NCBI GenBank assembly: GCA_964501035.1
Contig: CAZCRK010000010.1
Location: forward strand, 1-39,069
DNA: 39,069 nucleotides
Direction of reading: 5' to 3'
Within the stretch, counting starts at the first letter, position 1. Each line of letters begins with the position of its first letter. A program made the position numbers. Shown piece after piece: positions 3,001 through 6,000 of the stretch.

Positions 3001-6000
3001 GAACACGCGCTCACAAGATGCATAGAAATTATTACAATCAGCAAGGGCAATCATCGATACTTACGAATAGAATATGGTACAACACCCCAAATTTCAAAGT
3101 CCATTTCTGCCGTTACTTTTATTGGGTGATATTGGGAATTGTATGGAATTAATACGGGTTCATTATGGGCATGAGATAATTGCTTTACCGTAAACTCTCC
3201 GCAAATTAATGCAACCACGATATCCCCATCTTTAGCTGTAAGCGATCTATCAACAATAAGAATATCACCATCGTGAATTCCAATTTGCACCATTGAGTCT
3301 CCATTAGCATATGCCATAAATGTAGCAGATGGATTTCTGATAAGATATTTATCCAAGCTTATTGACAGGTCTGTAAAATCCTCTGCTGGAGAGGGAAACC
3401 CTGCTGGAATAAATGATATTTCTAATTGTTTTTCTATGATTTGCATTATAAATACTCGTATGTTACTCGTATATTTTACCAACCTTGTTAAATACAATGC
3501 AAGATATCCATTCTAAAGCTATACTTACAAATTGTTACGCTTTTCGATTTGGTAAATTCACAAATAATTCCGAACTTTGAGTATGTTCAAAATCATAATT
3601 TATATATTAAATATTACAACTATATTTGGAATATCCTTACAAGATGCCTATAATTCTGCAGAACCTGCAGATGGGTATGACAAGTATGTAATGCTTGATG
3701 CAAATATTGTATATACTGGCGGATTGGGGTTATTTGAAGGCAATATTAAAATCGATGGCAATGGTGCCGTTATTGATTTGCAATCAGGTGGTGGAATTTG
3801 GGTATATGGTGAAGCAGCATATCCTTGTCATGTTGATATTCAGGAATGTTCAGTAAAAAATAGTGATTATTTTGGTATTAGTTATGCGGGAACGTCAACA
3901 GGCTCTATTATAAATTGTAATCTTATTGAAAATGACTTTGGGGTTAAATTGTTTGACTCAACACATGTTGTAATCAAAAATTGCAATTTTATATCGAATA
4001 CAACCTATGGTTTAGGTATCTACAGTGAAATCCCAATTGCTGAAATTTCGTACTGCAATGCATGGAATAACGGTGATGCGGATTATATAGAAAACTGCCC
4101 CAACTGAGGTAGCATTTGGACTCCGTTGGAGCCCCAACCTGGTGATGGTCTCATTTTTGAAGATCCACTTTTTATTAATGAGCATTTTTCTAATTATAAT
4201 TATTTAGCAAATTCTCCCTGTATTGACACAGGTGATCCGCTCAAATTAGATGCTGATAGTACACGTAGTGATATTGGCGCATTATATTTTGTTCAAACCA
4301 ATTATCAAGTTGGAGATTGCAACAATGATAATGCACTCAATGTAATAGATGTTATAACTATTGTTAACGATTGTATTTTGTCTGAACCCGGTGCAAATTG
4401 CGACTGTAGCGATGTTAACTTTGATGGTAATATAAATGTGATTGATGTCATCACCTTGGTTTCTATTATTTTAGAAAATTAACCATACCTATATTTTGGG
4501 AATATTTACCTGATAATCGTTCCTTCTTAACGCCCTATTTCACACTTGAATTATTATTTTTATTTGTATTAATTTACTCCATGATTTTTTCATAAATCTT
4601 AGATGTCATTCATTCAAACTTGAGGAGACTGATTGAACAAAATTTTAATATTAGGACCATGTGGCGCAGGGAAATCAACTTTTTCTCAAAAATTAAGCCA
4701 TATTCTAAATATTCCAGTACTTCACCTTGACAAATTATTTTGGAAACCAGGTTGGGTTATGACAGATCCCTCACAATGGAATTCCCTACTAAAAAAGAAA
4801 TTGAAAAAAAATACATGGATTATGGATGGAAACTATGGAGATACCTTAGACATTCGTCTTCCTGAAGCTGATACCGTAATTTTCTTAAATTTTTCTAGAT
4901 ATCTATGTGTTTGGAGAGTAATAAAACGCATCATAACATCGTACGGCAGAACCCGGCCAGATATGGGGGAAGGATGTACCGAGCGATGGGATTGGGGGTT
5001 CATAAAGTACGTTTGGAACTTTCCTAAGCATGAAAAACCCCGCGTATTTACCAAATTAAAAAAACATCAAGATGATATAAATATATTAACCTTTAATTCC
5101 CCGTCTGCCTTGAATAAGTTTTTACTAAGCCTATAAAAAACAACCCCAGTACGGGGGTTGTTTTTTATACTTAATATTTTGAAATATTAAATCTATAACT
5201 TAAAGTTTAGAGATAATTTTGTAAATGAAGTAGCTAGAGATGTTGTTAATTTAGTATTAATCTCTTGATAGGAATCATACCAATAATCTTCTGAGGATGA
5301 TTCCGTGCTAAAACTGTTAATAATCCAAGTTAGACCAACATCAGCACTAATGGAAAATTGTTCATTAAACATATACTCTACTCCATAACTAGCGTTGAAT
5401 CCTATCATATCTAACATATCTTCAATAGGTTCTTCAATTGATCCACTCCCTTCACCACTTAAAGCAACAAATGGAATGACGATAAACCCTTCACCTTTTA
5501 TATAAGTATTTATTTTATTTGAATTGACTAAGTTTTGCCTCCAACCCACTCTTGGCATAAATACATTTATTGAAAATTCTCCACTGTCCTGATAATATTG
5601 GGTTTCACCCCAATCATGTTCAGTAACATCCATTTTAAAATCAACACCAAAATGGAAAAAATCTAATCCATAAAGCAAGTGATTACTATAAAATGTAGCT
5701 GATTGGTATTTTTCTTGTCCAATTCCTACACTAAATGTATCCCATGCAAATACTGTTGAAATTAAAGTTATTAATAGCACTATTTTTTTCATCTTTTTTG
5801 TCCTTTTTTATATTATTCAATTTGCAGAGTTTTCTTGATTGATTTAAGACTTTGATTTATACTCTGCGATTTAATTTATAACTTTTATATCTTTAACTAC
5901 TAATAAATTTTGTAAAGTATATTTCTTTGATTATCACCCTGCATAGTGCTAACATTTGCTTGGAATATTTGCAAAAATGACAACACATCAACTAAAAAAT

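Follow-up and report, generated by a model that had tools for sequence, protein, structure and literature searches.

Two adjacent gene calls (g00499 and g00500) in the window, by which we mean the whole 39,069-nucleotide stretch of contig CAZCRK010000010.1 analyzed here, lie on either side of a TGA codon, raising the question of whether they are one gene in which UGA is decoded as selenocysteine (Sec, U) and, if so, what Sec does in the product. When TGA is translated as Sec, the locus resolves into a single frame:

3583..4482, + strand: whole candidate selenoprotein gene, a frame of 299 codons that contains a single TGA and closes with TAA at 4480-4482
3577..4107, + strand: ORF upstream of the TGA (translation table 11, 176 aa, ends in TGA)
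4126..4482, + strand: ORF downstream of the TGA (translation table 11, 118 aa)
4096..4107, + strand: CxxU motif Cys172-Pro-Asn-Sec175, with TGA 4105-4107 as the Sec codon

The Sec residue lies in the motif E-N-C-P-N-U-G-S, and the sequence across residue 175 reads ...ENCPNU-GSIWTPLEPQPGDGLIFEDPLFINEHFSNYNYLANSPCIDTGDPLK. Contigs from four public DNA runs, each from a different study, differ from the window gene solely at 3888, 4089, and 4272, and the TGA at 4105-4107 shows no difference in any of the contigs that cover it; no RNA run appeared in the list of public runs with the sequence. A tRNA-Sec with anticodon UCA was found in the genome by aragorn and by Rfam (65.8 bits against a cut-off of 47), together with selA (523 bits), selB (375 bits), and selD (379 bits), the last with one TGA inside it. 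Among 62 genomes that hold the gene, selA is present in 57, and the five without it are 61–87% complete. A preliminary description of this locus had joined the two calls into one 299-aa protein read through UGA; the frame, the Sec machinery, the conservation of the UGA, and the covariation of a hairpin that follows it agree on this point, and we conclude that the locus is very probably a true Sec-decoded selenoprotein gene.

Conservation of the codon was assessed at three levels. In a 401-genome sample of the phylum, exactly one TGA occurred in each of the 64 matches that span residue 175; by translation, the TGA fell at the same column in 58/58 loci of 57 genomes at identities down to 33% (locus L066, which had no usable frame, was left out of the translated set); and the codon was TGA, never TGG, in 16/16 metagenome loci. 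The claim that every orthologue keeps the UGA thus stands on a broader sample, and no Cys was found at the Sec site in the 64 genome matches and 16 metagenome loci. The family had been described as confined to one order, which proved too narrow, since three other families of the class (f12, f18, and f21) also have it, in 16 of the 18 genomes sampled from them, as does one genome of another class within the phylum sample. Outside its own order, other export or anchor tails replace the C-terminal dockerin. The families of the class that hold the Sec form share only 37–50% identity, and the retention of Sec, never Cys, across them speaks for a task in this protein that selenium can perform and sulfur cannot. 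At codon positions 1/2/3, the mean pairwise differences were 0.40/0.31/0.59 upstream of the UGA and 0.40/0.33/0.58 at codons +10 to +63 after it, showing the same coding signature on either side.

A stem-loop soon after the UGA had been reported previously, and its alignment across orthologues gave the following feature:

4118..4134, + strand: SECIS hairpin GGACUCC-GUU-GGAGCCC, identified by covariation, stem beginning 10 nt after the UGA

In 57 orthologues this stem covaries strongly, with pairing in 87.8% of cells compared to 66.1±1.5 in shuffles, 69 double-change cells compared to 21.9±3.1 (0/500 shuffles as high), and a covariation score of 0.562 compared to 0.204, a value again reached by 0/500 shuffles. 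Slid controls gave at most 63.8% pairing and a covariation score of at most 0.198. Compensatory changes were seen in 5/7 stem pairs, and the loop nucleotides G4125 and U4126 were invariant in 57/57 orthologues. The residues encoded by the hairpin vary (TPWE, TPLV, TQFE, VPLE, AECL, EPCV, EEFL) while pairing is maintained, and third-position change is suppressed in its codons (0.37). In the window's own stem, an A·C mismatch separates just 4 Watson-Crick pairs from 2 G-C pairs that follow; orthologue L038 breaks one stem pair, the closing pair is unpaired in 10/56 sequences, and L093, whose hairpin lies one codon out of register, was omitted from alignment A4. Fold energies of single sequences were no better than those of shuffles (z -0.72; -0.10 to -1.74), and Rfam, searched on 3900-4400 at a permissive threshold, gave no family or SECIS match. 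By its covariation and invariant loop G-U, the hairpin after the UGA is a bacterial SECIS. In the SECIS of E. coli fdhF, loop nucleotides G23 and U24, counting from the U of UGA, are needed; on the same count the invariant G and U here are positions 21 and 22. Being very small and well covarying, this SECIS offers a clean test case for predictors that rely on Sec/Cys pairs.

The protein encoded by the read-through frame is modular:

3583..3639, + strand: N-terminal signal-like segment MFKIIIYILNITTIFGIS, from sequence, with the cleavage site inferred rather than tool-predicted
3748..4083, + strand: right-handed parallel beta-helix repeats, residues 56-167 (Pfam, AF2, VIA-align)
4213..4281, + strand: C-terminal helix cap SPCIDTGDP...SDIGA (invariant columns; paralogue alignments)
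4312..4458, + strand: type I dockerin with two Ca-loop/helix repeats (Pfam, residues 244-292; genome scan, C10:4312-4458)

The beta-helix, CxxU pair, and C-terminal dockerin of the preliminary description were all recovered. All orthologues open with a few basic residues and then a hydrophobic stretch, and the AF2 model (mean pLDDT 89.4) has a low-pLDDT helix at residues 2-14 and places the CxxU motif on a strand-turn that follows the last rung. The read-through protein matches Pfam Beta_helix (PF13229; 4.1e-12, 46.4 bits against a cut-off of 25.9, residues 56-167) and, marginally, Pfam NosD (1.6e-5, 24.9 bits against 23.6); assignment to NosD was rejected, there being no TIGR04247 match and no nos gene context. 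The best VIA-align match was the alginate lyase 6kfn (Z 14.4, rmsd 2.5 over 156 residues), followed by 7dmk and 7xks (both Z 14.3) and by other lyases and tailspikes, with Z from 14.4 to 10 over about 150–200 residues; Foldseek against the PDB returned generic beta-helix matches only (TM ≤0.32). Ten columns of the cap are invariant (S211, P212, C213, I214, G217, P219, D223, D230, I231, and G232), and the same cap is common to many Sec-free beta-helix paralogues in these genomes, which lack the CxxU loop. With beta-helix proteins at large (PF13229; PL6/PL31/PL1, tailspikes, NosD), the protein shares its Pfam match, its structure, and the cap SPCID..G.P...D.GA; the likeness of the model to polysaccharide lyases of PL1/PL6/PL31 is one of fold. 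Dockerin_1 (PF00404) was matched at residues 244-292 (3.5e-5, 24.3 bits against 22.9), and its two Ca-loop repeats can be read directly from the sequence as DCNNDNALNVIDV and DVNFDGNINVIDV.

We propose that a ribosome arriving at the UGA (4105-4107) would meet the hairpin 10 nt downstream (4118-4134, loop G-U), which would recruit SelB with Sec-tRNA(Sec) and so place Sec at residue 175. The product would be exported, as its signal-like N-terminus and the dockerin, T9SS tail, or other C-terminal module of its relatives suggest, and its short right-handed beta-helix has the fold of polysaccharide lyases, with Cys-x-x-Sec following the last rung and preceding the cap.

The preliminary description had found no Cys-containing homologue, a negative that does not hold at greater distance. 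Ten proteins (P0153, P0176, P0179, P0180, P0187, P0188, P0192, P0197, P0219, and P0252) share 28–36% identity with the window protein and involve other phyla; one cluster mate is named as candidate division TA06. Aligned against these ten, the protein is continuous across the site in hhalign (probability 100%, E 3e-48, 219 columns), with the second Cys of a CxC motif set on U175 across a one-residue gap. CxC has one residue fewer than CxxU, so that equating Sec with Cys depends on a gapped profile alignment, and both Cys are present in only 7/10 of the homologues. The two groups share an N-terminal cap (LQExYxxA..GYDK), the helix, the C-terminal cap, and a Cys pair in the same loop, but the homologues carry CxC (C[GDS]C) where the window protein carries CxxU, and several end in T9SS-type tails (YPNPF-type C-termini) where it ends in a dockerin. 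A profile search with the alignment of Cys homologues added only P0271 (a CDC motif) and the truncated P0272; a related-locus search with P0192 alone found one unrelated beta-helix locus, and the protein clusters listed for P0192 were only generic beta-helix plus T9SS.

Compared to known CxxU/UxxC genes decoded through SelB and SECIS, the gene has the same in-frame UGA, a coding-region hairpin nearby with a loop G-U, a Cys separated from Sec by two residues, and a genome that encodes the Sec machinery. It differs in encoding a beta-helix rather than a thioredoxin-like or AhpD protein, in being exported with anchor modules, in having no Cys orthologue, and in its very short hairpin (a triloop on 4–7 pairs). 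A thioredoxin-fold CxxU/UxxC oxidoreductase was considered and rejected, as there was no Trx, Redoxin, or AhpC Pfam match and the model is all beta-helix. Families of this kind listed in a marine metagenome survey include SelW-like, AhpD-like, and Prx-like selenoproteins (PMC2398784). In agreement with the preliminary description, the papers and libraries searched name no beta-helix protein as a selenoprotein, and the beta-helix part falls under no NCBIfam model; we found no description of this Marinisomatota family in these sources, the family tables of BSepDB, where it could be listed under another name, being outside the search. To the selenoproteins listed in the surveys consulted, the family adds a fold, the right-handed beta-helix, and a location, exported and anchor-tailed.

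Another known system close to this one is NCBIfam NF045500, "Omp28-related selenoprotein", a curated family which belongs to the same bacterial class and whose model positions 313-376 of 377 match residues 234-297 of the window protein. Membership was rejected because the match reaches 22.7 bits against a cut-off of 200 and covers the dockerin part alone; the same C-terminal model positions also match other dockerin segments of this genome, and the body of NF045500 is unrelated to the window protein. NF045500 gave no over-cut-off match in this genome; its over-cut-off matches, 20/21 of which contain one TGA, lie in families f8, f10, f11, and f19, and none was found in the 73 genomes sampled from the order to which the window belongs (f1-f5).

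As to the job of the Cys-Sec pair, we tentatively infer that it forms a redox-active selenylsulfide centre, carried by a helix that binds polymers and is displayed at the surface, and prefer this to two other explanations, both of which also accept the gene as a selenoprotein. The main alternative, which draws on the same pool of probability as the redox reading and which we consider possible and distinctly less probable, is that Cys-x-x-Sec is not a redox catalyst but a soft-metal site (Cu(I), Hg, Zn, Cd, Ni) for capture, delivery, or detoxification. The vicinal C[GDS]C of the distant homologues, in the same loop, is of a type found in metallothionein-like and copper-chaperone sites. The marginal NosD match (24.9 bits against 23.6) points the same way, as does the listing of MerP-type selenoproteins in the GOS survey (PMC2398784). 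However, the protein has no match to the NosD subfamily TIGR04247, no nos or metal-transport family occurs among the Pfam-named recurring neighbours or the two flanking ORFs, and the invariant columns include no conserved His, Met, or extra Cys ligands beside the pair. More generally, the neighbours are housekeeping genes (those named being a GNAT-like protein, an amidohydrolase, PyrF, glutaredoxin, and S24 peptidase/kinase ORFs), the window's own locus differs in its neighbours, and the gene context gave no functional lead.

It is unlikely, in our estimation, that the Sec-Cys pair is a structural selenylsulfide that stabilises the helix end in oxidising seawater, with any catalysis located elsewhere on the helix, for example that of a polysaccharide lyase or hydrolase. 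Such a role would suit a fold nearest to polysaccharide lyases (6kfn, Z 14.4), a pair whose spacing differs among clades (CxxU, CU, CxC), and the conserved Cys residues that also occur in the dockerin; yet it makes it hard to explain why the costly Sec is kept in 80/80 orthologues with no reversion to Cys, and no lyase catalytic residues were identified in a protein whose identity to lyases is 8–18%.

The redox reading places the centre at the cell surface, and in this organism the type I dockerin probably serves to attach it to cohesin proteins there. The genome has 62 dockerin matches, 60 of them above the cut-off, and four cohesin matches above the cut-off, on contigs C9, C29, and C52, one of the four in a protein with a T9SS-like tail; among relatives, L088 has a T9SS tail and P0192 matches TIGR04183. 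A complex prediction for the dockerin (4276-4479) with the L063 cohesin returned a score of 0.23, a mark of 0.34, and "no answer", which bears on binding neither way. The cohesin-dockerin system of the preliminary description was therefore borne out as to the dockerin in the protein and the cohesins in the genome, but its implication that a dockerin-bearing selenoprotein is unique was not, given NF045500 and two further Sec candidates of this genome that also bear a dockerin. A genome-wide hairpin scan is no selenoprotein census, because its strict filter (at least 5 perfect pairs) missed both the window gene and selD. Taken with the two other candidates and with NF045500 in sister families, the gene points to an extracellular selenoproteome, which would bear on marine selenium demand. 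We speculate, with correspondingly little confidence, that these marine bacteria display a set of selenoenzymes extracellularly on cohesin-dockerin (or T9SS) anchors, of which the beta-helix CxxU protein would be the most conserved, Sec-only member, its Sec being catalytic in a new activity on a polymer or dissolved substrate; if true, it would be the first Sec-dependent enzyme on the pectate-lyase fold.

Explanations that deny Sec fare much worse. It is highly improbable that the UGA is a true stop, with a helix fragment of 174 residues and a separate dockerin protein of 118 residues as its products, or that the gene is decaying. Gene callers do split the gene there, and about 60 database entries among the matches listed are N-terminal fragments of 165–193 residues. 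However, the G-[NS]-I-W that directly follows the UGA is conserved, with synonymous third positions, ahead of any start codon; all paralogues need the helix cap SPCID...DIGA, which here is encoded downstream of the UGA; the alignment with the Cys homologues is unbroken at the site; and the UGA holds one column in 58/58 loci, followed by a hairpin that covaries.

Slimmer still is the chance that UGA is read as Trp or Gly, by a changed code or plain read-through, as the W that occupies the U175 column in 57/57 aligned full-length database proteins (hits >200 residues among the 120 matches listed) might suggest, because the DNA codon is TGA, never TGG, in 16/16 metagenome and 58/58 genome loci, TGA is a normal stop that terminates 229/1129 long ORFs in this genome, and the sole tRNA-Trp found there has anticodon CCA, alongside the tRNA-Sec with UCA. 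Since the codon is always TGA, the simplest account of the database W is that gene calling translated the TGA as Trp, as code 4 would. In public protein catalogues the gene appears only split in two or with a false Trp, so that a conserved gene of an abundant marine lineage is misannotated.

As a separate observation on public resources, Table S1 of BSepDB, its genome list, includes 97 Marinisomatota rows.

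With translation table 11, the region is split into two open reading frames, 3577..4107 (176 aa, ending at TGA) and 4126..4482 (118 aa, with a TTG start), which become a single frame when TGA is read as selenocysteine (U). The read-through product has the following features:

Window 3583-4482 (+): predicted selenoprotein gene, one 299-residue frame ending in TAA
Window 4105-4107: the only TGA in the frame, U175, in the motif E-N-C-P-N-U-G-S
Window 4118-4134: hairpin GGACUCC-GUU-GGAGCCC, starting 10 nt past the UGA
Residues 56-167: Beta_helix (Pfam 4.1e-12, above cut-off)
Read-through protein: NosD (Pfam 1.6e-5, barely above cut-off)
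Residues 244-292: Dockerin_1 (Pfam 3.5e-5, above cut-off)

The preliminary description had proposed one 299-aa protein read through UGA at residue 175, with a Beta_helix/NosD region and a type-I dockerin, and both the open frame with its single TGA and the Pfam matches bear this out. Contigs from four public DNA runs (four studies) are identical at 4105-4107, so the TGA did not arise by misassembly of this genome. A reassigned code does not explain the UGA, because TGA serves as an ordinary stop (among 1129 stop-to-stop frames of 200 codons or more, 229 end in TGA, 719 in TAA and 181 in TAG) and because the tRNA-Trp anticodon is CCA (aragorn). The genome (1.87 Mb, G+C 33.8%, completeness 95.7%) encodes a tRNA-Sec with anticodon UCA (aragorn; Rfam 65.8 bits vs a gathering score of 47), selA (523 bits) with selB adjoining it (375 bits), and a selD that has one in-frame TGA.

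Conservation of the UGA, which had been claimed for every orthologue, extends throughout the larger samples. Exactly one TGA was present in all 32 full-length matches from this genome and 40 relatives. Across 401 genomes sampled evenly from the phylum, a search at E <=1e-25 gave 66 match rows in 62 genomes; all 64 matches spanning residue 175 have one TGA, and the other two rows are fragments cut off by contig ends at residues 163 and 147. The TGA lies in the same motif in 58/58 translated loci (57 genomes), either N/D/S-C-x-x-U-G or, in one subfamily lacking the two middle residues, N-C-U-G. Full-length loci on metagenome contigs also carry TGA (16/16), never TGG or TGC. Together, 80 of 80 orthologues retain Sec. 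A subfamily with Cys and Sec side by side reads YNENCUG, with P-G deleted, and comprises locus L046 and metagenome loci L101, L107, L109 and L110; its stem variant is GUUCC/GGAAC. One genome, G010, has two TGA-containing matches, on contigs C192 and C70.

Protein catalogues present the site differently: tryptophan occupies the Sec column in all 57 aligned full-length catalogue proteins (among P0003-P0061), these being the proteins longer than 200 residues among the 120 matches listed, and the remaining listed matches are mostly N-terminal fragments of 165-193 residues. Because the DNA, wherever visible, always reads TGA, we infer that gene calling most simply read TGA as Trp, as under code 4. 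The family is thus systematically mistranslated in metagenome gene catalogues.

The sequence past the UGA, where a stem-loop had been reported within 40 nt, holds the covarying hairpin at 4118-4134. Among 30 orthologues from the window's own order its 7-pair helix is 85.7% paired, with 15 double-change cells vs 3.3±1.3 in shuffled alignments (0/500 shuffles reach 15). The signal extends to more distant clades:

Hairpin statistics for 57 orthologues including more distant clades (none of 500 shuffles as high for any row)
Cells paired: 87.8% vs 66.1±1.5% shuffled
Double-change cells: 69 vs 21.9±3.1 shuffled
Covariation score: 0.562 vs 0.204 shuffled

Sliding the partner strand by 1-3 columns gave pairing of <=63.8% and scores of <=0.198. 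Compensatory changes affect five of the seven stem pairs, and the stems include ACUCC/GGAGC, ACACC/GGUGC, ACUCA/UGAGU, GUUCC/GGAAC, GUUCA/UGAAC, GCAGA/UCUGC, GCGGA/UUCGC, GAAGA/UCUUC and GAGGA/UCUUC. The peptide encoded over the hairpin varies (TPWE, TPLV, TQFE, VPLE, AECL, EPCV, EEFL) with pairing retained, a combination that, as read from the alignments, marks an RNA constraint acting atop the coding one. The loop G-U is invariant (57/57 orthologues). The E. coli fdhF SECIS requires loop G23/U24, numbered from the U of UGA; by the same count, the invariant G and U here are at positions 21 and 22. In the outlier L093 the hairpin is shifted by one codon (GGAAU-CCGUGG-AUUCC). The case for the hairpin is weaker on four counts: one stem pair is broken in locus L038, the closing pair is unpaired in 10 of 56 distinct sequences, single-sequence fold energies were no better than those of shuffles (z -0.10 to -1.74), and the hairpin had no Rfam match.

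Substitution patterns on both sides of the UGA are those of coding sequence, and translation accordingly appears to run on beyond it. Mean pairwise differences at codon positions 1/2/3 were 0.40/0.31/0.59 over the 140 codons upstream and 0.40/0.33/0.58 over downstream codons +10 to +63; over the six hairpin codons they were 0.21/0.38/0.37, with third-position change suppressed. A conserved helix cap, SPCID.G.P...D.GA, is encoded 3' of the UGA and is also present in Sec-free paralogues. We regard this as very probably a true SECIS-directed selenoprotein gene, with support near the limit of sequence analysis, and as a family that is new but belongs to a kind of system already known.

The family had been described as confined to the window's order, a restriction that does not hold, as the gene also occurs in three families of the same class and in one of another class:

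Occurrence of the gene in sampled families of the phylum Marinisomatota (genomes with the gene/genomes sampled)
f1, own order: 31/37
f2, own order: 2/3
f3, own order: 8/9
f4, own order: 3/3
f5, own order: 0/16
f12, same class, other order: 4/4
f18, same class, other order: 8/10
f21, same class, other order: 4/4
f23, another class: 1/1, at 33% identity

Family f5 lacks the gene yet has the Sec trait, since selA is present in 15 of its 16 genomes. Overall, selA was found in 304/401 sampled genomes and in 57 of the 62 gene holders, the remaining five being 61-87% complete. No gene copy of whatever kind was found in the sampled genomes of three families nearly devoid of selA (f7, 1/37; f26, 0/33; f25, 0/2). 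One database relative bears the name Candidatus Marinimicrobia protein. Forms outside the order retain C-x-x-U-G and the hairpin, with the dockerin replaced by a ~150-residue domain (GWNLISG...GYWLR), a T9SS-type tail (L088) or a long extension with a terminal dockerin (L093). The GWNLISG...GYWLR domain, which has no Pfam match, occurs in f12, f18, f21 and two f3 genomes (e.g., L077:1720-2205). The adjoining Endonuclease_1 protein (L077:2261-3496) terminates in a tail of this kind too, and for that reason the domain looks like a common sorting or anchoring module.

The statement that no Cys-containing homologue had been found stands for orthologues, none of which has Cys at the Sec site, and needs amending for more distant relatives. 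An exhaustive representative search turned up a sparse clade, 28-36% identical, that shares with the orthologues both the helix and the N-terminal cap LQExYxxA..GYDK and carries C[GDS]C in the corresponding loop (two Cys in 7/10, one in 2/10, none in 1/10); P0271 is an additional CDC-bearing homologue. Alignment of the Sec and Cys clades by hhalign (probability 100%, E 3e-48, 219 columns) pairs ENCPGU-G with EEC-SCP, placing the second Cys on U175 with a one-residue gap. This correspondence is, on the alignment, distant and not a clean Sec/Cys pair. Several Cys homologues have T9SS-type tails (YPNPF-type C-termini; P0192 matches TIGR04183), and one cluster mate is named as candidate division TA06.

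The earlier claim that no beta-helix selenoprotein has been named agrees with the portions of the literature consulted. In full-text searches, no paper connected selenoproteins with dockerins, NosD, beta-helices or the pectate-lyase fold. The word 'helix' is absent from the text seen of the BSepDB paper (PMC13326102), the deep-Sep paper (PMC12013277), a 2026 review (PMC13188914), the GOS survey (PMC2398784) and a 2022 review with a family table (PMC9312934), and 'NosD' and 'dockerin' are absent from that of the first three. A 2016 survey mentions SAR406 genomes in another context only (PMC5029168). The method of the GOS survey was built on Sec/Cys pairs (PMC2398784), and the present family would elude it. 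The genomes examined for BSepDB include 97 Marinisomatota (PMC13326102); the family was not met under beta-helix terms in the paper's text, and may be listed under another name in its family tables. NCBIfam has no model over the helix part. The NCBIfam model NF045500, 'Omp28-related selenoprotein', matched the beta-helix protein at the dockerin only (22.7 bits vs a cut-off of 200). Above-cut-off matches to it occurred in 13/151 sampled genomes of the class (f8, f10, f11 and f19, e.g., L183-L186) and in none of those from the window's order; 20 of these 21 matches have one TGA, and some genomes have 5-7 matches.

A hairpin-filtered genome scan followed by Pfam yielded further Sec candidates in the same genome, listed here with selD:

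C1:52085-52567 (-): BCP-type peroxiredoxin candidate, TPGU, AhpC-TSA 2.4e-38
C8:36657-37907 (+), L187: dockerin-bearing candidate, 417 residues, TGA at C8:37524
C13:7047-7973 (+): selD, Sec candidate, motif GAGUACK
C41:12208-12963 (+): GRDB-like candidate, VUPMC
C59:8387-9538 (+): signal-bearing CGU candidate without a Pfam match
C73:364-2283 (-), L188: dockerin-bearing candidate, 640-residue frame, TGA at C73:889-891, FFSPLUPVC

The hairpins of the candidates from the scan start 9-14 nt past the UGA with a G-U among loop positions 1-3, which is not independent evidence, as the filter demanded that G-U. The C73 candidate combines an LVIVD repeat, an Ig-like domain, AhpC-TSA/Redoxin across the TGA and a C-terminal Dockerin_1 (7e-9), with the hairpin AGUCCGG-AGUUA-UCGGAUU 9 nt past the UGA. 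The C8 candidate has a mid-protein dockerin (4.8e-6), a C-terminal part with GKAGUSTC (UxxC), and the hairpin GACACCG-GUU-CGGUGUU, whose GUU triloop is that of the beta-helix gene.

The genome has 62 Dockerin_1 matches (60 above cut-off) and four cohesin matches, one of them in a protein with a T9SS-like tail, and the dockerin is therefore predicted to be a general tag on exported proteins of this organism. That cohesin protein (251 residues; L063:1408-2163 on C29) begins with a signal-like segment and has a single cohesin domain and the tail NFPNPFNPTT...; it may serve as a surface anchor of the 60-odd dockerin proteins. An AF2 model of the selenoprotein (mean pLDDT 89.4, pTM 0.76) is a short right-handed beta-helix whose last rung ends at C172; P-N-U forms a short turn (pLDDT 74-78), followed by the cap and the dockerin helices. 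In structure comparisons it comes closest to polysaccharide lyases and tailspikes:

6kfn: Z 14.4, rmsd 2.5 over 156 residues
7dmk: Z 14.3
7xks: Z 14.3
7o0y (NosD): Z 10.8

The modelled fold, held in common with lyases, tailspikes and NosD, shows no function. We tentatively favour, at slightly less than even confidence, a redox-active selenylsulfide carried by a polymer-binding helix displayed at the cell surface, because the pair would sit at a strand-turn like redox CxxC/CxxU centres, because Sec is kept in every orthologue, and because Prx-like Sec domains of this genome are likewise joined to dockerins. That the pair is instead a soft-metal site seems unlikely, and a purely structural cross-link is more improbable still.

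Neighbouring genes gave no functional lead across 58 compared loci: a GNAT-like gene upstream (30), a convergent amidohydrolase (32), pyrF (27) and a glutaredoxin downstream (12) recur, and all four are absent at the window's locus. The glutaredoxin (Pfam 2e-11) lies directly 3' on the same strand at L081:729-992 (-) and 11 other loci, in f18, and may reflect synteny only. In the window, the divergent upstream neighbour (1795-3497, -) comprises a Peptidase_S24 protein (1.5e-28) and an overlapping 419-residue ORF that, by eye, looks like a putative Y-family polymerase forming an umuDC-like pair with it, and a small P-loop kinase-like ORF lies downstream at 4633-5136.
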